NCBI GenBank assembly: GCA_965233585.1
Contig: CBDDTI010000448.1
Coordinates: 1-15,171, forward strand
Source: a bacterium
GTDB lineage: Bacteria; SAR324; NAC60-12
Direction of reading: 5' to 3'
DNA length: 15,171 nucleotides
Part shown: piece after piece, positions 1 through 15,171 of the stretch
How positions within the stretch are numbered: position 1 is the stretch's first letter
Layout: every line of letters starts with the position of its first letter
Position numbers and translations under genes: made by a program
The notes under the pieces: model-generated
Database searches by the model: none
Told to the model about the DNA's origin: nothing
The model's input: the letters and a program-made list of their open reading frames with translations, nothing else

Positions 1-2
1 AC

Positions 3-2549
3 ATGAAAAAACGCAGACTTTCGGCCGAACTCAACTGGATAAAACGACTACAGACGCCATATCCTCTTGGCCTTAATGATCAGATCTACCAACAAGGGAA
101 CATATCATCCGTTCGCTCAAATATTAACGTCTTCTCATTGAAACCAGATGTTCGCAGAAAGCGTCGATCTCATGGTGTACGTCGCAATGGTCTCTCTAGG
201 AGAAAACAAAGACTGAATAGGTCCTTGGATGACCTTCTACGAATCGCCAAAAATAACGGTCGACACGAGCTCTTACATGCACTCTCTTCTATTCCGGTAT
301 CTCGAATGAAACCAATCCTGGATGAGGCAGACCGCAGAAGTTTACGACATTCAGATTGATTCAAACTTAAAATGATTATGGCTTTTTCGTTTAATAAACT
401 CTTTCCCCGCATACCTCCACTTCCTCCTTAAACACAGTTTATCAAAATTAAGTTCGTTAATCACGGCTTGGACTTGCTTAATATTTCCAACAGTTTCAGG
501 GATCACAGAGTCACCTCTAAAATCCCTCAGTATTTCGAGAATCTTGACCCTCCTCTTATTTGCTATCAGTACAAAAGTCCTATTCGAAATATCATTTTCA
601 ACTACAACCAAGTAACTTCTGATCCTGATGTTCTGAGTTCCATTCAGCCATCATGATCTTGTGCGGACTCACCGTTTCTGTATCCACCTGCTGGACATGT
701 TGTCACCGGTGACCTTACTTGTATTCCTGATAAAGGATTACGGTCTCTCTTTAAGAAAGGGCCTAAATACAGACTTCCATCCAGGATTGATTTTACTAAG
801 TGCCGGGATATTGTCGAGGATGCACTTCAGACGTATTGTAAACGTTGGTCCAAAAAGGAAGGCGTCGGAGTGCATGCCCTTAACGACTGGAAAAATGAAT
901 TTTTACGCATTATTGACATAAGAATAGACAATTTTACTAAACACCCACATTTGTTCAAACAGCCATCCAGTCGTTCAGTGAAGTCATTGAAAAAGAAAAT
1001 GGAGAAATTACACCGTAAATATGTCTTTGCTCCTGCCGATAAAGCAGCGAATAACGTGATCATTATTTGAAAAAGACACTACGTAGAGGTTTTGAAGGGT
1101 GAATTAAATTCTACGAGTACATACGCACCTGCTCAGTTGACGAAAGACCAACTTCTTGTGCATCATATCAATACTCTCACGAAAATAGATGTCAAAATTG
1201 ATAAATGTGAACTGCCTACATTTTATTGGTTGCCAAAATTACACAAACGTCCTTATAAATCACGTTTTATATCAAATTCAAGTCACTGCTCTACTACCAT
1301 TCTTTCGAAGCATATTACATCTGCTCTGACAGCTGTCAAAGATCATGTTATAAAGTACAGTGAAACTGCTTTTAGCAATAGTAATGTCAATTATTTTTGG
1401 TCCATTAAAAACTCTTCCGAGGTCATCGAAAAGTTGCGACTGCGTAACTTTCGGGGTTCTCAGGTATCTTCTTTCGACTTTTCTACTTTATACACCTCAT
1501 TGCCACATGATCTTATCAAAGCAAAAGTGTTGTCTCTTGTCAACTGGTGTTTCAACAGAGAGTCAAAAACGTACCTCTGTACTTCAGATAAGGCAGGGTT
1601 TTTTAGCAACAAGAAATATGACTCGTATAAATGTTGGTCTTGCGCGGAGTTATGTGAAGCTTTTACTTTCCTCATGGAAAACATATATGTGCAATTTGAT
1701 GGCATGGTATATCAACAAATAGTGGGGATTCCTATGGGCACCAATTGTGCTCCACTTATAGCAGATTTATTTTTATATTGTTACGAGAGGGACTTTATGT
1801 CTGACCTTCAAAAGTCGAAACGTTTTGACCTCATAGATATGTTCAACGATACCTCTCGATATCTTGACGATATTTTCACCATCGATAACCCTGAATTTGA
1901 GAAACATATTCCTGATATATATCCAGCTGAACTTCAGTTGAATAAAGCAAATACTTCAGACAAAGAAACTTCTTTCTTAGATTTAAATATAAAAGTTATT
2001 GGTAGTGACATTCATACCAGCGTTTACGACAAACGCGATGACTTCGGATTTCCTATCGTTAATTTCCCATGGTTGAGTGGTGACGTCCCTAGACTCCCAT
2101 CGTACGGTATTTACATTTCGCAGTTAGTTAGATTTGCTAGGTGTTGTACTAGCGTTTTGGATTTCCATTCTAAAAATCTCCAAATTACTTCAAAACTGCT
2201 GACACAGGGTTATAGATATCACAAGCTTCGAAAAACATTTGGAAAGTTCTTTAGATCATACTCTGAACTTCTGTCGAAATTTGGTGATATTTCGTTCCAA
2301 GAATATTTGTCAAAAGGAATCTCTCACCCGGTCTTCTACGGTGATCTAGTTTACAAACTAAGGAGGGTCAAAGACACACCTAATTTCATCTTGTCGGGTT
2401 CGAAAATAGTCAAACGCCTTCGACGACGACAGTATGACCCAGTGATCATCGAGAGGACTATAGGTCTTGTGCTTGGCCCTTCTACAGCCTTGTACGAACC
2501 GTTCCTAAAGCATTGCACTCTGACTAACAAGGCGGTGGGGACTATATGA
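3..2549 (+). pseudogene. Copy 1 EN-RT selenoprotein ORF, partial, with premature TAA
   Basis: One frame with TGA at 357, 654 and 1068 as in the other copies. AAA>TAA at 429-431 (AAA at 4267-4269 in copy 2), plus several private missense changes nearby. Confidence 0.85.
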
Positions 2550-2601
2550 CGGGCCTTGTCCAAACCTCCTCAGAGGCGACAGGGTCCTGATCTTTGTCCC
2601 C
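2537..2601 (+). promoter_or_regulatory. SECIS element, form II (copy 1)
   Basis: Helix I GGGGAC(2537-42)/GTCCCC(2596-2601); core ATGAC(2546-50)/TGAT(2588-91); helix II GGGCCTTGTC(2551-60)/GACAGGGTCC(2578-87); unpaired AAA(2562-64); apical mini-stem CCTC-ctca-GAGG. The basal stem extends with CTGACTAACAA(2520-30)/TTGTTAGTCGG(2607-17). Confidence 0.92.
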
Positions 2602-2784
2602 TCTGATTGTTAGTCGGGACTCCTTCAGCCATCAGACCTGAGCTCGCTTTCAGCCGGGCGGAGCACAGCCGGCCCTATTTGGATGTCGCTAAATATATTT
2701 TTGATATATAATATTTATTAACTATGCTGTGTGTGTATTGATTTTTATGACCTCTCCGCTTGGTGTGGCTGTTGGTTTGTTGTC

Positions 2785-2792
2785 TATATAAG
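2785..2792 (+). promoter_or_regulatory. Candidate TATA box in the 3' UTR/pseudo-LTR (also at 6623, 10354, 13895)
   Basis: TATATAAG matches TATAWAWR. A start ~30 nt downstream (~2815) would fall just before the ribozyme-like structure. Motif match only. Confidence 0.45.
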
Positions 2793-2826
2793 GAGGTTTA
2801 TTTACAAATTTTTAAATGTGTGTCCT

Positions 2827-2953
2827 TTTGATTACACGGCTGTTGCGGGGAGTGGGAAGGTGGGCCCGTAAACCGGTTAACCACACCAGTTGGGTGGCTG
2901 TAGTTACTCCAACTGACCGTCCTAAGTCGGTCCGCAATTGCTGTTTAATCGAA
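2827..2953 (+). ncRNA. Putative twister ribozyme, P5-type circular permutation (copy 1)
   Basis: P5 2830-2848/2932-2950; P2 GTGG(2852-55)/CCAC(2881-84); conserved GA(2856-57); T1 AGG(2858-60)/CCT(2921-23); L1 TAA(2878-80); T2 AC(2885-86)/GT(2926-27); P3 2887-2915; P4 ACCG/CGGT closing loop TCCTAAGT. P1 is weak (GCC/GGT). Folded manually. Confidence 0.75.
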
Positions 2954-3222
2954 CTTTTTTGTGGCGTTGTTTGTGTTGTCACTTTGCCCCTTTGACATTT
3001 CTGTTGGTATAGGGGCTTTTGTCATAGGACTGGGTCAGATCTCCTCCTTTTTGTCTTTATATCTACACTTATTCCCGGCTGCAGTGTGGAGCGTTGTAAC
3101 AAGGTTCCCCGCGTCCGGGTGTTTAAAGTGTCATTATTCATCTCATTCGAGTTCTGACTTAGTTGTGTGATAGATTCCTTTATACTACGGAATCTTTTCC
3201 CCACAATTACCCGAACCCCAAT

Positions 3223-6200
3223 ATGGCTACAAATTTACTGAATTGCAAAAATAGATCACCTCGAGTTTTACTCACTCCTCTTAGATTACCTTCTGTATCT
3301 TCACTTCATCTTCCTGGCGTTTCTTGTAAAAAACTGTTTACTACCACTAAAGTTGCACTTTCTCCCCTTCACTTTGGTTCTCCAAATTCCAAATCTCAGT
3401 CAGTTTCTAACTCGGGTCGGACTGCAAAGTCCTTTCGTCTCACTAATCGTATTAACAGAAGGTTTTCTAAGATATCCACGTGCAATGCTAGGAGATGTTT
3501 AACATGCCACCATATCTCATGCAAGTCAACTATAACATCCTCTATCAATGGCAAAAGATACGGCATCCAAATCGACAAAGACGTTGATTGAAATAGTTCA
3601 AATTTGATATACGTTATTACATGAGAAGCCAGGGGTTGTGGTGCTCAGTACGTCGGCGAAACATCTCAAAGCCTGAAAGGTCGCTTCCGCAGTCATTCGT
3701 TTAAAATCCGAAACAATTCTAGACGCAAATACAAGAACTTCTTATATGACCACTTCATTAAATATAATCATTCCATAGAAAATGTTACTATAACTCCAGT
3801 TGAAATTCTTTCTAAAAAACCTGGTGATTCGAAAAATGACATGAAAAAACGCAGACTTTCGGCCGAACTCAACTGGATAAAACGACTACAGACGCCATAT
3901 CCTCTTGGCCTTAATGATCAGATCTACCAACAAGGGAACATATCATCCGTTCGCTCACACATTAACGTCTTCTCATTGAAACCAGATGTTCGCAGAAAGC
4001 GTCGATCTCATGGTGTACGTCGCAATGGTCTCTCTAGGAGAAAACAAAGACTGAATAGGTCCTTGGATGACCTTCTACGAATCGCCAAAAATAACGGTCG
4101 ACACGAGCTCTTACATGCACTCTCTTCTATTCCGGTATCTCGACTGAAACCAATCCTGGATGAGGCAGACCGCAGAAGTTTACGACATTCAGATTGATTC
4201 AAACTTAAAATGATTATGGCCTTTTCGTTTAATAAACTCTTTCCCCGCATACCTCCACTTCCTCCTAAAACACAGTTTATCAAAATTAAGTTCGTTAATC
4301 AAGGCCTGGACTTGCTTAATATTTCCAACATTTTCAGGGATCACAGAGTCACCTCTAAAATCCCTCAGTATTTCGAGAATCTTGACCCTCCTCTTATTTG
4401 CTATCAGTACAAAAGTCCTATTCGAAATATCATTTTCAACTACAACCAAGTAACTTCTGATCCTGATGTTCTGAGTTCCATTCAGCCATCATGATCTTGT
4501 GCGGACTCACCGTTTCTGTATCCACCTGCTGGACATGTTGTCACCGGTGACCTTACTTGTATTCCTGATAAAGGATTACGGTCTCTCTTTAAGAAAGGGC
4601 CTAAATACAGACTTCCATCCAGGGTTGATTTTACTAAGTGCCGGGATATTGTCGAGGATGCACTTCAGACGTATTGTAAACGCTGGTCCAAAAAGGAAGG
4701 CGTCGGAGTGCATGCCCTTAACGACTGGAAAAATGAGTTTTTACGCATTATTGACATAAGAATAGACAATTTTACTAAACACCCACATTTGTTCAAACAG
4801 CCATCCAGTCGTTCTGTGAAGTCATTGAAAAAGAAAATGGAAAAATTACACCGTAAATATGTCTTTGCTCCTGCCGATAAAGCAGCGAATAACGTGATCA
4901 TTATTTGAAAAAGACACTACGTAGAGGTTTTGAAGGGTGAATTAAATTCTACGAGTACATACGCACCTGCTCAGTTGACGAAAGACCAACTTCTTGTGCA
5001 TCATATCAATTCTCTCACCAAAATAGATGTCAAAATTGATAAATGTGAACTGCCTACATTTTATTGGTTACCAAAATTACACAAACGTCCTTATAAATCA
5101 CGTTTTATATCAAATTCAAGTCACTGCTCTACTACCATTCTTTCGAAGCATATTACATCTGCTCTGACAGCTGTCAAAGATCATGTTATAAAGTACAGTG
5201 AAACTGCTTTTAGCAATAGTAATGTCAATTATTTTTGGTCCATTAAAAACTCTTCCGAGGTCATCGAAAAGTTGCGACTGCGTAACTTTCGGGGTTCTCA
5301 GGTATCTTCTTTCGACTTTTCTACTTTATACACCTCATTGCCACATGATCTTATCAAAGCAAAAGTGTTGTCTCTTGTCAACTGGTGTTTCAACAGAGAG
5401 TCAAAAACGTACCTCTGTACTTCAGATAAGGCAGGGTTTTTTAGCAACAAGAAATATGACTCATATAAATGTTGGTCTTGCGCGGAGTTATGTGAAGCTT
5501 TTACTTTCCTCATGGAAAACATATATGTGCAATTTGATGGCATGGTATATCAACAAATAGTGGGGATTCCTATGGGCACCAATTGTGCTCCACTTATAGC
5601 AGATTTATTTTTATATTGTTACGAGAGGGACTTTATGTCTGACCTTCAAAAGTCGAAACGTTTTGACCTCATAGATATGTTCAACGATACCTCTCGATAT
5701 CTTGACGATATTTTCACCATCGATAACCCTGAATTTGAGAAACATATTCCTGATATATATCCAGCTGAACTTCAGTTGAATAAAGCAAATACTTCAGACA
5801 AAGAAACTTCTTTCTTAGATTTAAATATAAAAGTTATTGGTAGTGACATTCATACCAGCGTTTACGACAAACGCGATGACTTCGGATTTCCTATCGTTAA
5901 TTTCCCATGGTTGAGTGGTGACGTCCCTAGACTCCCATCGTACGGTATTTACATTTCGCAGTTAGTTAGATTTGCTAGGTGTTGTACTAGCGTTTTGGAT
6001 TTCCATTCTAAAAATCTCCAAATTACTTCAAAACTGCTGACACAGGGTTATAGATATCACAAGCTTCGAAAAACATTTGGAAAGTTCTTTAGATCATACT
6101 CTGAACTTCTGTCGAAATTTGGTGATATTTCGTTCCAAGAATATTTGTCAAAAGGAATCTCTCACCCGGTCTTCTACGGTGATCTAGTTTACAAACTAAG

Positions 6201-6387
6201 GAGGGTCAAAGACACACCTAATTTCATCTTGTCGGGTTCGAAAATAGTCAAACGCCTTCGACGACGACAGTATGACCCAGTGATCATCGAGAGGACTATA
6301 GGTCTTGTGCTTGGCCCTTCTACAGCCTTGTACGAACCGTTCCTAAAGCATTGCACTCTGACTAACAAGGCGGTGGGGACTATATGA
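3223..6387 (+). CDS. GIY-YIG endonuclease / reverse transcriptase polyprotein, 1054 aa, with 5 putative selenocysteines (U123, U134, U325, U424, U562)
   Basis: ATG in AATATGG context. Continuous frame except TGA at 3589, 3622, 4195, 4492 and 4906. EN: CNARRCLTC...DUNSSNLIYVITUEARGCGAQYVGET...RFRSH...LYDHF...ELNWIKRLQTPYPLGLN. Linker: USC...GHVVTGDL...KGPKYR. RT: ADKAANNVIIIUK, YWLPKLHK, SFDFSTLYT, GIPMGTNCAPLIADL, RYLDDI, FLDL. Confidence 0.92.
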
Positions 6388-6439
6388 CGGGCCTTGTCCA
6401 AACCTCCTCAGAGGCGACAGGGTCCTGATCTTTGTCCCC
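6375..6439 (+). promoter_or_regulatory. SECIS element, form II (copy 2)
   Basis: Same sequence as 2537-2601. The core TGA at 6385-6387 is the ORF stop. Confidence 0.92.
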
Positions 6440-6664
6440 TCTGATTGTTAGTCGGGACTCCTTCAGCCATCAGACCTGAGCTCGCTTTCAGCCGGGCGGA
6501 GCACAGCCGGCCCTATTTGGATGTCGCTAAATATATTTTTGATATATAATATTTATTAACTATGCTGTGTGTGTATTGATTTTTATGACCTCTCCGCTTG
6601 GTGTGGCTGTTGGTTTGTTGTCTATATAAGGAGGTTTATTTACAAATTTTTAAATGTGTGTCCT

Positions 6665-6791
6665 TTTGATTACACGGCTGTTGCGGGGAGTGGGAAGGTG
6701 GGCCCGTAAACCGGTTAACCACACCAGTTGGGTGGCTGTAGTTACTCCAACTGACCGTCCTAAGTCGGTCCGCAATTGCTGTTTAATCGAA
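6665..6791 (+). ncRNA. Putative P5-type twister ribozyme (copy 2)
   Basis: Same sequence as 2827-2953. Predicted cleavage between 6716 and 6717. Confidence 0.75.
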
Positions 6792-6953
6792 CTTTTTTGT
6801 GGCGTTGTTTGTGTTGTCACTTTGCCCCTTTGACATTTCTGTTGGTATAGGGGCTTTTGTCATAGGACTGGGTCAGATCTCCTCCTTTTTGTCTTTAGTG
6901 ATAGATTCCTTTATACTACGGAATCTTTTCCCCACAATTACCCGAACCCCAAT

Positions 6954-9900
6954 ATGGCTACAAATTTACTGAATTGCAAAAATAGATCACCTCGAGTTTT
7001 ACTCACTCCTCTTAGATTACCTTCTGTATCTTCACTTCATCTTCCTGGCGTTTCTTGTAAAAAACTGTTTACTACCACTAAAGTTGCACTTTCTCCCCTT
7101 CACTTTGGTTCTCCAAATTCCAAATCTCAGTCAGTTTCTAACTCGGGTCGGACTGCAAAGTCCTTTCGTCTCACTAATCGTATTAACAGAAGGTTTTCTA
7201 AGATATCCACGTGCAATGCTAGGAGATGTTTAACATGCCACCATATCTCATGCAAGTCAACTATAACATCCTCTATCAATGGCAAAAGATACGGCATCCA
7301 AATCGACAAAGACGTTGATTGAAATAGTTCAAATTTGATATACGTTATTACATGAGAAGCCAGGGGTTGTGGTGCTCAGTACGTCGGCGAAACATCTCAA
7401 AGCCTGAAAGGTCGCTTCCGCAGTCATTCGTTTAAAATCCGAAACAATTCTAGACGCAAATACAAGAACTTCTTATATGACCACTTCATTAAATATAATC
7501 ATTCCATAGAAAATGTTACTATAACTCCAGTTGAAATTCTTTCTAAAAAACCTGGTGATTCAAAAAATGACATGAAAAAACGCAGACTTTCGGCCGAACT
7601 CAACTGGATAAAACGACTACAGACGCCATATCCTCTTGGCCTTAATGATCAGATCTACCAACAAGGGAACATATCATCCGTTCGCTCACACATTAACGTC
7701 TTCTCATTGAAACCAGATGTTCGCAGAAAGCGTCGATCTCATGGTGTACGTCGCAATGGTCTCTCTAGGAGAAAACAAAGACTGAATAGGTCCTTGGATG
7801 ACCTTCTACGAATCGCCAAAAATAACGGTCGACACGAGCTCTTACATGCACTCTCTTCTATTCCGGTATCTCGACTGAAACCAATCCTGGATGAGGCAGA
7901 CCGCAGAAGTTTACGACATTCAGATTGATTCAAACTTAAAATGATTATGGCCTTTTCGTTTAATAAACTCTTTCCCCGCATACCTCCACTTCCTCCTAAA
8001 ACACAGTTTATCAAAATTAAGTTCGTTAATCAAGGCCTGGACTTGCTTAATATTTCCAACATTTTCAGGGATCACAGAGTCACCTCTAAAATCCCTCAGT
8101 ATTTCGAGAATCTTGACCCTCCTCTTATTTGCTATCAGTACAAAAGTCCTATTCGAAATATCATTTTCAACTACAACCAAGTAACTTCTGATCCTGATGT
8201 TCTGAGTTCCATTCAGCCATCATGATCTTGTGCGGACTCACCGTTTCTGTATCCACCTGCTGGACATGTTGTCACCGGTGACCTTACTTGTATTCCTGAT
8301 AAAGGATTACGGTCTCTCTTTAAGAAAGGGCCTAAATACAGACTTCCATCCAGGGTTGATTTTACTAAGTGCCGGGATATTGTCGAGGATGCACTTCAGA
8401 CGTATTGTAAACGCTGGTCCAAAAAGGAAGGCGTCGGAGTGCATGCCCTTAACGACTGGAAAAATGAGTTTTTACGCATTATTGACATAAGAATAGACAA
8501 TTTTACTAAACACCCACATTTGTTCAAACAGCCATCCAGTCGTTCTGTGAAGTCATTGAAAAAGAAAATGGAAAAATTACACCGTAAATATGTCTTTGCT
8601 CCTGCCGATAAAGCAGCGAATAACGTGATCATTATTTGAAAAAGACACTACGTAGAGGTTTTGAAGGGTGAATTAAATTCTACGAGTACATACGCACCTG
8701 CTCAGTTGACGAAAGACCAACTTCTTGTGCATCATATCAATTCTCTCACCAAAATAGATGTCAAAATTGATAAATGTGAACTGCCTACATTTTATTGGTT
8801 ACCAAAATTACACAAACGTCCTTATAAATCACGTTTTATATCAAATTCAAGTCACTGCTCTACTACCATTCTTTCGAAGCATATTACATCTGCTCTGACA
8901 GCTGTCAAAGATCATGTTATAAAGTACAGTGAAACTGCTTTTAGCAATAGTAATGTCAATTATTTTTGGTCCATTAAAAACTCTTCCGAGGTCATCGAAA
9001 AGTTGCGACTGCGTAACTTTCGGGGTTCTCAGGTATCTTCTTTCGACTTTTCTACTTTATACACCTCATTGCCACATGATCTTATCAAAGCAAAAGTGTT
9101 GTCTCTTGTCAACTGGTGTTTCAACAGAGAGTCAAAAACGTACCTCTGTACTTCAGATAAGGCAGGGTTTTTTAGCAACAAGAAATATGACTCATATAAA
9201 TGTTGGTCTTGCGCGGAGTTATGTGAAGCTTTTACTTTCCTCATGGAAAACATATATGTGCAATTTGATGGCATGGTATATCAACAAATAGTGGGGATTC
9301 CTATGGGCACCAATTGTGCTCCACTTATAGCAGATTTATTTTTATATTGTTACGAGAGGGACTTTATGTCTGACCTTCAAAAGTCGAAACGTTTTGACCT
9401 CATAGATATGTTCAACGATACCTCTCGATATCTTGACGATATTTTCACCATCGATAACCCTGAATTTGAGAAACATATTCCTGATATATATCCAGCTGAA
9501 CTTCAGTTGAATAAAGCAAATACTTCAGACAAAGAAACTTCTTTCTTAGATTTAAATATAAAAGTTATTGGTAGTGACATTCATACCAGCGTTTACGACA
9601 AACGCGATGACTTCGGATTTCCTATCGTTAATTTCCCATGGTTGAGTGGTGACGTCCCTAGACTCCCATCGTACGGTATTTACATTTCGCAGTTAGTTAG
9701 ATTTGCTAGGTGTTGTACTAGCGTTTTGGATTTCCATTCTAAAAATCTCCAAATTACTTCAAAACTGCTGACACAGGGTTATAGATATCACAAGCTTCGA
9801 AAAACATTTGGAAAGTTCTTTAGATCATACTCTGAACTTCTGTCGAAATTTGGTGATATTTCGTTCCAAGAATATTTGTCAAAAGGAATCTCTCACCCGG

Positions 9901-10118
9901 TCTTCTACGGTGATCTAGTTTACAAACTAAGGAGGGTCAAAGACACACCTAATTTCATCTTGTCGGGTTCGAAAATAGTCAAACGCCTTCGACGACGACA
10001 GTATGACCCAGTGATCATCGAGAGGACTATAGGTCTTGTGCTTGGCCCTTCTACAGCCTTGTACGAACCGTTCCTAAAGCATTGCACTCTGACTAACAAG
10101 GCGGTGGGGACTATATGA
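6954..10118 (+). CDS. GIY-YIG endonuclease / RT polyprotein, 1054 aa, 5 putative selenocysteines (copy 3)
   Basis: Same protein blocks as copy 2 at constant offset 3731. TGA at 7320, 7353, 7926, 8223 and 8637; stop at 10116-10118. Confidence 0.92.
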
Positions 10119-10170
10119 CGGGCCTTGTCCAAACCTCCTCAGAGGCGACAGGGTCCTGATCTTTGTCCCC
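10106..10170 (+). promoter_or_regulatory. SECIS element, form II (copy 3)
   Basis: Same sequence as 2537-2601. Confidence 0.92.
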
Positions 10171-10395
10171 TCTGATTGTTAGTCGGGACTCCTTCAGCCA
10201 TCAGACCTGAGCTCGCTTTCAGCCGGGCGGAGCACAGCCGGCCCTATTTGGATGTCGCTAAATATATTTTTGATATATAATATTTATTAACTATGCTGTG
10301 TGTGTATTGATTTTTATGACCTCTCCGTTTGGTGTGGCTGTTGGTTTGTTGTCTATATAAGGAGGTTTATTTACAAATTTTTAAATGTGTGTCCT

Positions 10396-10522
10396 TTTGA
10401 TTACACGGCTGTTGCGGGGAGTGGGAAGGTGGGCCCGTAAACCGGTTAACCACACCAGTTGGGTGGCTGTAGTTACTCCAACTGACCGTCCTAAGTCGGT
10501 CCGCAATTGCTGTTTAATCGAA
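10396..10522 (+). ncRNA. Putative P5-type twister ribozyme (copy 3)
   Basis: Same sequence as 2827-2953. Predicted cleavage between 10447 and 10448. Confidence 0.75.
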
Positions 10523-10595
10523 CTTTTTTGTGGCGTTGTTTGTGTTGTCACTTTGCCCCTTTGACATTTCTGTTGGTATAGGGGCTTTTGTCATA

Positions 10596-13500
10596 AAACT
10601 GTTTACTACCACTAAAGTTGCACTTTCTCCCCTTCACTTTGGTTCTCGGGAAATTCCAAATCTCAGTCAGTTTCTAACTCGGGTCGGACTGCAAAGTCCT
10701 TTCGTCTCACTAATCGTATTAACAGAAGGCTTTTCTAAGATATCCACGTGCAATGCTAGGAGATGTTTAACATGCCACCATATCTCATGCAAGTCAACTA
10801 TAACATCCTCTATCAATGGCAAAAGATACGGCATCCAAATCGACAAAGACGTCGATGCTCTGAAATAGTTCAAATTTGATATATGTTATTACATGAGAAG
10901 CCAGGGGTTGTGGTGCTCAGTACGTCGGCGAAACATCTCAAAGCCTGAAAGGTCGCTTCCGCAGTCATTCGTTTAAAATCCGAAACAATTCTAGACGCAA
11001 ATACAAGAACTTCTTATATGACCACTTCATTAAATATAATCATTCCATAGAAAATGTTACTATAACTCCAGTTGAAATTCTTTCTAAAAAACCTGGTGAT
11101 TCGAAAAATGACATGAAAAAACGCAGACTTTCGGCCGAACTCAACTGGATAAAACGACTACAGACGCCATATCCTCTTGGCCTTAATGATCAGATCTACC
11201 AACAAGGGAACATATCATCCGTTCGCTCACACATTAACGTCTTCTCATTGAAACCAGATGTTCGCAGAAAGCGTCGATCTCATGGTGTACGTCGCAATGG
11301 TCTCTCTAGGAGAAAACAAAGACTGAATAGGTCCTTGGATGACCTTCTACGAATCGCCAAAAATAACGGTCGACACGAGCTCTTACATGCACTCTCTTCT
11401 ATTCCGGTATCTCGACTGAAACCAATCCTGGATGAGGCAGACCGCAGAAGTTTACGACATTCAGATTGATTCAAACTTAAAATGATTATGGCCTTTTCGT
11501 TTAATAAACTCTTTCCCCGCATACCTCCACTTCCTCCTAAAACACAGTTTATCAAAATTAAGTTCGTTAATCAAGGCTTGGACTTGCTTAATATTTCCAA
11601 CATTTTCAGGGATCACAGAGTCACCTCTAAAATCCCTCAGTATTTCGAGAATCTTGACCCTCCTCTTATTTGCTATCAGTACAAAAGTCCTATTCGAAAT
11701 ATCATTTTCAACTACAACCAAGTAACTTCTGATCCTGATGTTCTGAGTTCCATTCAGCCATCATGATCTTGTGCGGACTCACCGTTTCTGTATCCACCTG
11801 CTGGACATGTTGTCACCGGTGACCTTACTTGTATTCCTGATAAAGGATTACGGTCTCTCTTTAAGAAAGGGCCTAAATACAGACTTCCATCCAGGGTTGA
11901 TTTTACTAAGTGCCGGGATATTGTCGAGGATGCACTTCAGACGTATTGTAAACGTTGGTCCAAAAAGGAAGGCGTCGGAGTGCATGCCCTTAACGACTGG
12001 AAAAATGAGTTTTTACGCATTATTGACATAAGAATAGACAATTTTACTAAACACCCACATTTGTTCAAACAGCCATCCAGTCGTTCTGTGAAGTCATTGA
12101 AAAAGAAAATGGAAAAATTACACCGTAAATATGTCTTTGCTCCTGCCGATAAAGCAGCGAATAACGTGATCATTATTTGAAAAAGACACTACGTAGAGGT
12201 TTTGAAGGGTGAATTAAATTCTACGAGTACATACGCACCTGCTCAGTTGACGAAAGACCAACTTCTTGTGCATCATATCAATACTCTCACCAAAATAGAT
12301 GTCAAAATTGATAAATGTGAACTGCCTACATTTTATTGGTTACCAAAATTACACAAACGTCCTTATAAATCACGTTTTATATCAAATTCAAGTCACTGCT
12401 CTACTACCATTCTTTCGAAGCATATTACATCTGCTCTGACAGCTGTCAAAGATCATGTTATAAAGTACAGTGAAACTGCTTTTAGCAATAGTAATGTCAA
12501 TTATTTTTGGTCCATTAAAAACTCTTCCGAGGTCATCGAAAAGTTGCGACTGCGTAACTTTCGGGGTTCTCAGGTATCTTCTTTCGACTTTTCTACTTTA
12601 TACACCTCATTGCCACATGATCTTATCAAAGCAAAAGTGTTGTCTCTTGTCAACTGGTGTTTCAACAGAGAGTCAAAAACGTACCTCTGTACTTCAGATA
12701 AGGCAGGGTTTTTTAGCAACAAGAAATATGACTCATATAAATGTTGGTCTTGCGCGGAGTTATGTGAAGCTTTTACTTTCCTCATGGAAAACATATATGT
12801 GCAATTTGATGGCATGGTATATCAACAAATAGTGGGGATTCCTATGGGCACCAATTGTGCTCCACTTATAGCAGATTTATTTTTATATTGTTACGAGAGG
12901 GACTTTATGTCTGACCTTCAAAAGTCGAAACGTTTTGACCTCATAGATATGTTCAACGATACCTCTCGATATCTTGACGATATTTTCACCATCGATAACC
13001 CTGAATTTGAGAAACATATTCCTGATATATATCCAGCTGAACTTCAGTTGAATAAAGCAAATACTTCAGACAAAGAAACTTCTTTCTTAGATTTAAATAT
13101 AAAAGTTATTGGTAGTGACATTCATACCAGCGTTTACGACAAACGCGATGACTTCGGATTTCCTATCGTTAATTTCCCATGGTTGAGTGGTGACGTCCCT
13201 AGACTCCCATCGTACGGTATTTACATTTCGCAGTTAGTTAGATTTGCTAGGTGTTGTACTAGCGTTTTGGATTTCCATTCTAAAAATCTCCAAATTACTT
13301 CAAAACTGCTGACACAGGGTTATAGATATCACAAGCTTCGAAAAACATTTGGAAAGTTCTTTAGATCATACTCTGAACTTCTGTCGAAATTTGGTGATAT
13401 TTCGTTCCAAGAATATTTGTCAAAAGGAATCTCTCACCCGGTCTTCTACGGTGATCTAGTTTACAAACTAAGGAGGGTCAAAGACACACCTAATTTCATC

Positions 13501-13659
13501 TTGTCGGGTTCGAAAATAGTCAAACGCCTTCGACGACGACAGTATGACCCAGTGATCATCGAGAGGACTATAGGTCTTGTGCTTGGCCCTTCTACAGCCT
13601 TGTACGAACCGTTCCTAAAGCATTGCACTCTGACTAACAAGGCGGTGGGGACTATATGA
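10596..13659 (+). pseudogene. Copy 4 EN-RT ORF lacking start codon, with three small insertions near its 5' end
   Basis: Insertions of +2 (~10648), +1 (10730) and +4 (10857-60) relative to copy 2. The frame is otherwise colinear from ~10861 to the stop. Confidence 0.85.
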
Positions 13660-13711
13660 CGGGCCTTGTCCAAACCTCCTCAGAGGCGACAGGGTCCTGA
13701 TCTTTGTCCCC
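13647..13711 (+). promoter_or_regulatory. SECIS element, form II (copy 4)
   Basis: Same sequence as 2537-2601. Confidence 0.92.
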
Positions 13712-13936
13712 TCTGATTGTTAGTCGGGACTCCTTCAGCCATCAGACCTGAGCTCGCTTTCAGCCGGGCGGAGCACAGCCGGCCCTATTTGGATGTCGCT
13801 AAATATATTTTTGATATATAATATTTATTAACTATGCTGTGTGTGTATTGATTTTTATGACCTCTCCGCTTGGTGTGGCTGTTGGTTTGTTGTCTATATA
13901 AGGAGGTTTATTTACAAATTTTTAAATGTGTGTCCT

Positions 13937-14063
13937 TTTGATTACACGGCTGTTGCGGGGAGTGGGAAGGTGGGCCCGTAAACCGGTTAACCACACCAGT
14001 TGGGTGGCTGTAGTTACTCCAACTGACCGTCCTAAGTCGGTCCGCAATTGCTGTTTAATCGAA
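13937..14063 (+). ncRNA. Putative P5-type twister ribozyme (copy 4)
   Basis: Same sequence as 2827-2953. Predicted cleavage between 13988 and 13989. Confidence 0.75.
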
Positions 14064-14166
14064 CTTTTTTGTGGCGTTGTTTGTGTTGTCACTTTGCCCC
14101 TTTGACATTTCTGTTGGTATAGGGGCTTTTGTCATAGGACTGGGTCAGATCTCCTCCTTTTTGTCT

Positions 14167-15171
14167 ATGTTTAACATGCCACCATATCTCATGCAAGTCA
14201 ACTATAACATCCTCTATCAATGGCAAAAGATACGGCATCCTAATCGACAAAGACGTTGATTGAAATAGTTCAAATTTGGTATATGTTATTACATGAGAAG
14301 CCAGGGGTTGTGGTGCTCAGTACGTCGGCGAAACATCTCAAAGCCTGAAAGGTCGCTTCCGCAGTCATTCGTTTAAAATCCGAAACAATTCTAGACGCAA
14401 ATACAAGAACTTCTTATATGACCACTTCATTAAATATAATCATTCCATAGAAAATGTTACTATAACTCCAGTTGAAATTCTTTCTAAACAACCTGGTGAT
14501 TCAAAAAATGACATGAAAAAACGCAGACTTTCGGCCGAACTCAACTGGATAAAACGACTACAGACGCCATATCCTCTTGGCCTTAATGATCAGATCTACC
14601 AACAAGGGAACATATCATCCGTTCGCTCAAATATTAACGTCTTCTCATTGAAACCAGATGTTCGCAGAAAGCGTCGATCTCATGGTGTACGTCGCAATGG
14701 TCTCTCTAGGAGAAAACAAAGACTGAATAGGTCCTTGGATGACCTTCTACGAATCGCCAAAAATAACGGTCGACACGAGCTCTTACATGCACTCTCTTCT
14801 ATTCCGGTATCTCGACTGAAACCAATCCTGGATGAGGCAGACCGCAGAAGTTTACGACATTCAGATTGATTCAAACTTAAAATGATTATGGCTTTTTCGT
14901 TTAATAAACTCTTTCCCGAATACCTCCACTTCCTCCTAAAACACAGTTTATCAAAATTAAGTTCGTTAATCAAGGCCTGGACTTGCTTAATATTTCCAAC
15001 ATTTTCAGGGATCACAGAGTCACCTCTAAAATCCCTCAGTATTTCGAGAATCTTGACCCTCCTCTTATTTGCTATCAGTACAAAAGTCCTATTCGAAATA
15101 TCATTTTCAACTACAACCAAGTAACTTCTGATCCTGATGTTCTGAGTTCCATTCAGCCATCTTGATCTTGT
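14167..15171 (+). mobile_element. Naiad-type PLE copy 5, 5'-truncated, frameshifted, runs off window
   Basis: Starts at ATGTTTAACATGCC (equivalent to 3495). 1-bp deletion near 14915-14919 (TTTCCCGAATA vs TTTCCCCGCATA). Confidence 0.92.

Follow-up and report, generated by a model that had tools for sequence, protein, structure and literature searches.

The 3' untranslated region (UTR), or pseudo-LTR, of a Naiad retroelement appears to carry a circularly permuted, type-P5 twister ribozyme that is predicted to cut between U2878 and A2879 and to be switched on by the pairing of two RNA copies. The probability of this reading as a whole, which rests on sequence comparison, is put at about 0.6. Its parts differ in strength: the motif is almost certainly a twister-derived fold, and self-cleavage at the predicted site is highly probable. 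The motif is both real and new, a variant of the twister in a new host class.

The Host Element

The window (the whole stretch of DNA analyzed, positions 1-15171, 15,171 nt) is a head-to-tail array of a 3.8-kb element. Its copies start at unit positions 1, 108, 271, and 436, while their 3' ends nearly coincide (3838, 3838, about 3805-3811, and 3835). Three features define the element around the ribozyme.

3223-6387, forward strand: Naiad ORF, 1054 aa, with N-terminal GIY-YIG, CxC, DKA, and RT and five in-frame UGA codons, identified by comparison with the motifs that PMC8557442 gives as diagnostic
2538-2600, forward strand: SECIS element (Rfam RF00031, 42.1 bits, above the gathering score of 35), the core AUGA of which includes the last UGA of the ORF
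2954-3059, forward strand: tail from the ribozyme to the 3' end of the element, placed by array junctions and a depth drop; 181 nt from the predicted cut to 3059

The ORF is a single frame when TGA is decoded as selenocysteine. Its translation shows LIY at residues 128-130 and YVG at 143-145, U-S-C at 424-426, and DKA at 552-554, followed by the RT. Pfam gave nothing significant on this protein, and its homologues carry PF00078 and PF01541. Within the window Rfam places a SECIS 3' of each complete ORF end, including 6376-6438, and at both that site and 2538-2600 the final UGA of the ORF is part of the SECIS core. The five internal UGA codons and the RF00031 SECIS are those of a selenoprotein Naiad, and the partial tandem with 5' truncation expected of Naiads is present as well. 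The diagnostic features of selenoprotein Naiads given by Craig et al. 2021 (PMC8557442) match the window's element. Together, ORF motifs, UGA codons, and SECIS agree with the first-pass annotation in naming a Naiad as host, and the assignment to the N-terminal-EN Penelope-like elements, selenoprotein type, is supported on these sequence features.

The ribozyme motif lies in the 3' UTR, 227 nt 3' of the SECIS. Depth in DNA contigs (run X6) falls from 51,596 to 320 across 3059/3060, a drop of the kind that many 5'-truncated copies would produce.

Further observations concern the element and its surroundings. Another contig of the same assembly, C653, holds an array 94-95% identical, in which one copy has no ribozyme through deletion. 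At the 5' start of the element in the window (3072-3115) there is a short motif like the conserved 5' motif in many published Naiad consensi. Of 14 related loci scanned, 7 show SECIS-like matches, 2 of these above the gathering score, so selenoprotein Naiads look more widely spread than the four published families. Although its completeness score as a prokaryote genome is 92%, the 12-Mb assembly contains animal retroelement contigs. Naiad-like RTs are also found on 24 GTDB contigs, and the presence of Naiad contigs in prokaryote assemblies is presumably host contamination.

A P5-Permuted Twister Core

The ribozyme occurs four times in the window and is described by its first copy.

2827-2953, forward strand: P5-permuted twister-like ribozyme, copy 1 (fold, descriptor, held-out model, and position check)
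6665-6791, forward strand: ribozyme copy 2, identical to copy 1 (held-out model)
10396-10522, forward strand: ribozyme copy 3, identical to copy 1 (held-out model)
13937-14063, forward strand: ribozyme copy 4, identical to copy 1 (held-out model)
2827-2848, forward strand: 5' strand of P5, pairing with 2932-2953 in the fold
2852-2855, forward strand: P2 strand (P2'), four Watson-Crick pairs with 2881-2884
2856-2857, forward strand: G2856 (general-base position) and A2857; G in 27/28 and A in 25/28 non-training rows
2858-2860, forward strand: T1 pseudoknot strand (T1'), pairing with 2921-2923, 3/3 Watson-Crick
2862-2867, forward strand: palindrome 1, where the first P1 strand would be (palindrome test against shuffles)
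2871-2878, forward strand: palindrome 2, where the second P1 strand would be, ending at the predicted cut
2878-2879, forward strand: cleavage site U2878/A2879, followed by A2880, predicted by homology to the twister
2881-2884, forward strand: second strand of P2, pairing with 2852-2855
2885-2886, forward strand: T2 pseudoknot strand, pairing with 2926-2927
2887-2915, forward strand: P3 hairpin, 12-42 nt in relatives
2916-2931, forward strand: P4 (2916-2919/2928-2931) with the 8-nt loop L4 (2920-2927)

The strand order is P2'-T1'-cut-P2-T2-P3-P4 with the termini within P5, which is the type-P5 permutation. Every twister core element that had been proposed in this permuted order is found at its position, in all four identical copies. 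The nested P5/P2/P3/P4 arrangement is the minimum-energy fold given by RNAfold (-55.5 kcal/mol, z -4.5), and 0 of 200 shuffles equal it.

Searches with the motif and with known families gave a less simple picture. A strict twister descriptor has 7 matches on both strands of the 12-Mb assembly, every one a copy of the window's element. A loose descriptor has 141 in the same assembly (24 Mb counting both strands), which indicates that the loose core by itself is not specific. The Rfam comparison suggested as a check went against the motif, as no twister model matches the window at E<=10. On the whole assembly RF02684 gives 2 weak matches elsewhere and 0 at the motif, and the Rfam twister models give no match on 14 related loci. 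Given that Rfam is blind to the motif, the single sequence could not decide its nature; its relatives did.

Evidence from Relatives

Relatives were gathered by RT alignment: 24 loci from genome_contigs and the best 80 of at least 543 confirmed stretches from metagenome_contigs, 104 in all. On this set of 24 loci plus the best 80 of at least 543, a relaxed P5-twister descriptor finds 29 sense matches, 102-696 nt downstream of the RT match, and 5 strays (4 antisense, 1 within an ORF); it has 0 matches in 193,041 nt of shuffled tails. A second parser, run over the same 104 loci (again including the best 80 of at least 543), gives 35 rows that represent 28 distinct cores, among them the window's own and a copy on contig C487.

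Pairing in these cores is extensive, although the counts are partly circular in that the parser scores pairing itself: P2 pairs in 27/28, 28/28, 13/13, and 27/28 cores by position; T1 in 19/28 (nine have U.U at one end), 28/28, and 27/28 (C-G 22, U-A 5); T2 in 27/28 at both positions; and P4 in 27, 27, 28, and 28 of 28. T1 exchanges C-G, U-A, and A-U across cores, and the variable T2 pair is A-U in 12, C-G in 10, and G-U in 5. P2 has 4 bp in 13 of the 28, including the window, and 3 bp with a bulge in 15. All 28 cores can be closed by a P5-type stem, 7-13 bp long and lying within 16 nt. The window copy has neither relative defect, the bulged P2 or the U.U in T1.

A less circular test was made because of the parser's scoring. 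It uses a covariance model built from 8 other loci, with the window left out and the pseudoknots not modeled. The model was run on 79 of the 104 loci together with the window and two stretches of the window's assembly, and it gives 44 matches, all sense to the element. It finds the held-out window at 41.6 bits (E about 1e-6) and has 8 matches within the window's own assembly. In the alignment made by the model (36 distinct rows), 95.8% of cells are paired. The pseudoknots outside the model are paired in 84.7% (T1) and 97.1% (T2) of cells, against 31-46% in slid controls, with double-sided changes at 2 of 3 T1 pairs and 1 of 2 T2 pairs. P4 is paired in 99.3%, and its closing G-C is found in 36/36. 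The covariation that had been proposed as a check on related Naiad 3' UTRs is present in both T1 and T2. All counts exclude the MAFFT alignments A2-A4, whose G-A anchor was out of register.

The pseudoknot pairs bear on the earlier claim that changes in the window are compensatory. The twisters in Table 1 of PMC8501958 have T2 as GC/GC and T1 as CCC/GGG or UCC/GGG. The window's pairs differ from these and are therefore compensatory relative to published twisters.

Single bases follow the same pattern. Among the 28 rows outside the training set, 25-28 retain the catalytic G, both As that follow the cut, and the bases of L4; the 8-nt L4 reads U-nCn-AA-Gn, its loop bases being kept in 26-28. The base at -1 varies (U21 C4 A1 G1 gap1). 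G2856 and A2879, which had been singled out as kept, are in place in the window, and the catalytic G and A+1 are each found in 27/28, counts that are partly circular in that both anchors also steered the search. Fixed catalytic bases with a free -1 base are the twister pattern described in PMC5408937 and PMC6154101, and the relatives match it.

Two copies in the sample deserve mention. The copy on C487 (G000:C487:2776-2863, reverse strand) is older and 88% identical; it keeps the twister core with A at -1, and its palindrome 2 is broken. Locus L009 (1626-1815) has two successive twister copies; the second of them has decayed, and its T2 pair is not the same.

Palindromes in Place of P1

P1 is part of the twister consensus, yet it is described as dispensable for cleavage (PMC5408937), and a twister without it has been called "inefficient" (PMC8501958). 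In the Naiad motif a three-pair P1 forms in at most 6 of 28 cores, whichever register is tried. The first-pass annotation had drawn a P1 of about 3 bp after a 3-nt insert; that helix is fully paired in 4 of 28 related cores. Both this register and the one chosen by RNAfold fail across relatives, and a P1 directly after T1' is paired in 0/28.

What occupies the segment from T1 to the cut (17-24 nt across cores; 2861-2878 in the window) is two palindromes with a short linker. Twin palindromes beat shuffles at p<0.05 in 22 of 28 cores and at p<0.01 in 17; a palindrome replacing the helix beside the cut, a trait of dimeric ribozymes, is found in those 22/28. The six cores that fail the test are C487, L040, L080, L105, L083, and L025; in L080, palindrome 2 has a 2-nt center, a form that the test excludes. 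In most cores palindrome 2 ends at the cut or within a base or two of it. The lengths of the two palindromes correlate weakly (rho 0.38, p 0.06).

The palindrome sequences diverge widely across cores while self-complementarity persists. Palindrome 1 has 7 different self-complementary centers (GCGC 12, GATC 5, GGCC 3, TGCA 2, GTAC, AGCT, and CGCG). Palindrome 2 has 10, one of them a mis-pick (CCGG 7, ACGT, CTAG, CATG, and odd forms with an unpaired middle base). These counts are inflated by near-copies, but each change of center needs two matched substitutions, and each palindrome shows several such changes. As a control, the center of the P3 hairpin is self-complementary in 1 of 24 cores. Plain hairpins were considered for the palindromes and are ruled out, both by covariation at the innermost pairs and by the weakness of the folds that the segment forms as a monomer (0 to -5.6 kcal/mol). 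Since the innermost bases covary even though a hairpin could not pair them, the comparison points to the palindromes pairing between two RNA copies.

A Proposed Dimer-Gated Mechanism and Its Alternatives

In a lone copy, the palindrome segment would fold back onto the T1 strand and hinder the active site. In most cores the monomer fold pairs one or more bases of the T1 strand with a probability above 0.9, a sequestration that may be overstated because the energy tools ignore pseudoknots. The partners could be the two pseudo-LTRs of one tandem transcript or two element RNAs. Palindrome 1 would pair with palindrome 1 and palindrome 2 with palindrome 2 between the copies, T1 would be freed, and the intercopy helices would occupy the stacking place of P1. 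In nearest-neighbor energies without junction or topology terms, opening T1 and forming both duplexes is favorable in 26 of 28 cores (-14.5 kcal/mol in the window). Topology may be an obstacle, as both duplexes would have to form between loops that are closed. The bulged 3-bp P2 of 15/28 relatives may lower activity; altered P2 length has been suggested to disturb the active site (PMC5408937).

Cuts at both successive copies would release a unit-length RNA with a 5'-OH at 2879 and a cyclic phosphate at the next 2878. Such an RNA may be circularized; release of unit-length RNA for circularization was proposed for Penelope hammerheads (PMC4209133). Reverse transcription would begin internally, near 3059, which would put the ends of the element off the cut, and it starts internally in the anole element PAc (PMC11167929). 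Among the copies in the window and on C653, none has its start or its end at the predicted cut. Internal initiation would account for the absence of such junctions. According to the same report on PAc, no RNA reads end at the cut of its hammerhead.

Dimer gating is the least certain step of the mechanism, and the monomer may cut anyway given that the twister stays active without P1 (PMC5408937). It is unlikely, though not far-fetched, that the motif is an active monomeric twister lacking P1 whose palindromes pair RNA copies for some other purpose; with the same modest likelihood, that purpose would be to align ends for ligation or template switching or to build a two-RNA, two-protein particle. 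P1-less twisters do cleave (PMC5408937, PMC8501958), and for one Penelope protein a dimeric state is predicted (PMC11167929). In addition, a 10-nt palindrome is also found in an unrelated second motif (below) and may be a general Naiad dimerization signal. However, both palindromes sit exactly at the place of P1, with the second ending at or near the cut in most cores, and in the monomer fold the T1 strand is usually taken up by pairing.

It is quite improbable that the fold derives from a twister but no longer cuts itself, serving instead as a binding or start signal for RT and endonuclease or cutting only with the aid of protein. The PAc hammerhead, which needs protein and is dispensable for insertion in vitro (PMC11167929), offers a precedent; the constant spacing of about 180 nt from the element's 3' end, the absence of a junction at the cut, and the P2 and T1 variants among relatives would also fit. 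The conserved bases speak against it, as they are the catalytic set of the twister and the one position free in twisters, -1, is free here. Chance resemblance within a structured UTR would be in keeping with the missing Rfam twister match and with the 141 matches of the loose descriptor in 24 Mb, but it is vanishingly improbable: the shuffled-tail control (0 descriptor matches in 193,041 nt against 29 sense matches downstream of RT), the held-out score of 41.6 bits, and the pseudoknot covariation refute it. The dimer-gated P5 twister is the reading preferred here.

Spread Among Naiads and a Second Motif

The spread of the motif was surveyed in 60 loci with a tail of at least 450 nt and an RT match reaching residue 395, several of them labeled by eye. 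In this sample, drawn from a set with the best 80 of at least 543 stretches, the twister is present in 23 of 24 loci at 47% or higher RT identity; below 47%, 11 of 36 have the twister, 8 have the second motif, and 17 have neither. On a quick tree, the rows that bear the twister are spread over no fewer than three subclades. In 22 of the 54 consensi of File S5 of Craig et al., tails read by eye (the last 450-600 nt or more of each, with names partly inferred from file order) show the twister in 5 (Scon, Mmer, Mgal, Bpla, and Mphi), the second motif in 10, and neither in 7. The proposal that a twister stands in the place of the hammerhead thus holds against both relatives and published Naiad consensi. 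An 8-mer search of the Craig et al. supplement missed the motif, L4 being different there. A pattern scan of viral_contigs gave 7 stretches, none a twister or beside an RT, and a protein scan gave none.

The second motif, also a pseudoknot, occupies the twister's place in the 3' UTR of twelve loci and never occurs alongside the twister.

L064:3295, L066:1429, L067:1521, L071:2735, L072:2112, L073:3232, L081:1090, L088:1120, L090:1073, L094:1714, L098:1903, L099:847: second motif

In 10 sequences its 10-nt palindrome is 100% paired with double-sided change at 5/5 pairs, and a crossing 5-bp helix is likewise 100% paired with double-sided change at every pair. Another 5-bp helix opens with G.U or G-C and is otherwise invariant. 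No Rfam family matches the motif, no HDV-like match was found on 10 loci, and the window's assembly has only 2 matches, which look like chance. At about even odds, its parts would map onto an HDV-like core with rearranged strands and without P2. When unrelated motifs swap at one position, this usually signals that self-cleavage is the function they have in common (PMC10085705, PMC6765202). The 3' tails of L017 and L082, which lie behind more distant RTs (33-40% identity) and have neither motif, show hammerhead-like cores by eye.

Novelty and Meaning

A literature search, thin in its coverage of subscription papers, found no twister in a Penelope-like element and no natural dimeric twister. Some of the Naiad loci may already be included, without comment, in a list of twisters in print. 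A wider reading, advanced tentatively and at well short of even odds, is that this would be the first natural obligate-dimer twister, and that Naiads swapped ribozyme classes, carrying either a twister or an undescribed permuted HDV-like ribozyme, each with palindromes, without ever losing self-cleavage. If true, the Penelope cycle would generally depend on dimer-gated self-cleavage, which would have arisen on three independent occasions and would not be a parasite of that cycle. PMC8557442 raised the idea that hammerheads merely parasitize Penelope-like elements; a conserved twister that occupies the hammerhead's slot and shares its palindrome design speaks for a function that is needed.

The question of its role is open to test with a 130-nt RNA. 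A twister architecture overlooked by Rfam is present in animal elements of very high copy number, and the position of the slot points to a second, uncatalogued ribozyme candidate. For RNA engineering, the motif would offer a natural twister that depends on concentration or on a tandem arrangement.

Comparison with Known Systems

The closest ribozyme is the type-P5 twister (RF02684; PMC5408937), which shares with the Naiad motif the strand order, P2, P4 with its closing G-C, the 8-nt L4, both T1 and T2, the G-A after P2, and the N/AA cut site. In contrast, the Naiad motif lacks P1 and has two palindromes instead, its T2 is AC/GU, GC/GU, or CC/GG where twisters usually have GC/GC, and about half of the Naiad relatives have the 3-bp bulged P2. 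It is too distant from RF02684 (58 positions) to score. For Penelope-like-element hammerheads, the title of Lunse et al. 2017 reportedly contains the word dimers.

The minimal type I hammerheads of canonical Penelope pseudo-LTRs (Cervera and de la Pena; PMC4209133) are alike in host class and position and in having the helix beside the cut replaced by a palindrome able to pair two copies. In those hammerheads helix III is palindromic and unstable, and cutting is weak and occurs as dimers. They belong to a different ribozyme class, with one palindrome of 2-4 nt against two of 6-12 nt in Naiads, and the Naiad twister sits in a clade reported to be without canonical hammerheads. In the report of that absence (PMC8557442), hammerheads alone were searched for, and the word twister does not appear in the main text.

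The Perere-3 and RTE twisters (PMC8501958; PMC7761336) also serve a retroelement and have a weak or missing P1. While they are P1-type and lie at the 5' end, where target-site duplications adjoin the cut, the Naiad ribozyme is P5-type, lies in a Penelope-like 3' UTR, and does not mark an end of the element. The nearest elements are Naiad_Scon and Naiad_Mmer (PMC8557442, File S5), which resemble the window's element in domain order, in-frame UGA codons, and SECIS, and whose consensi, read by eye, carry the same ribozyme motif with both palindromes.
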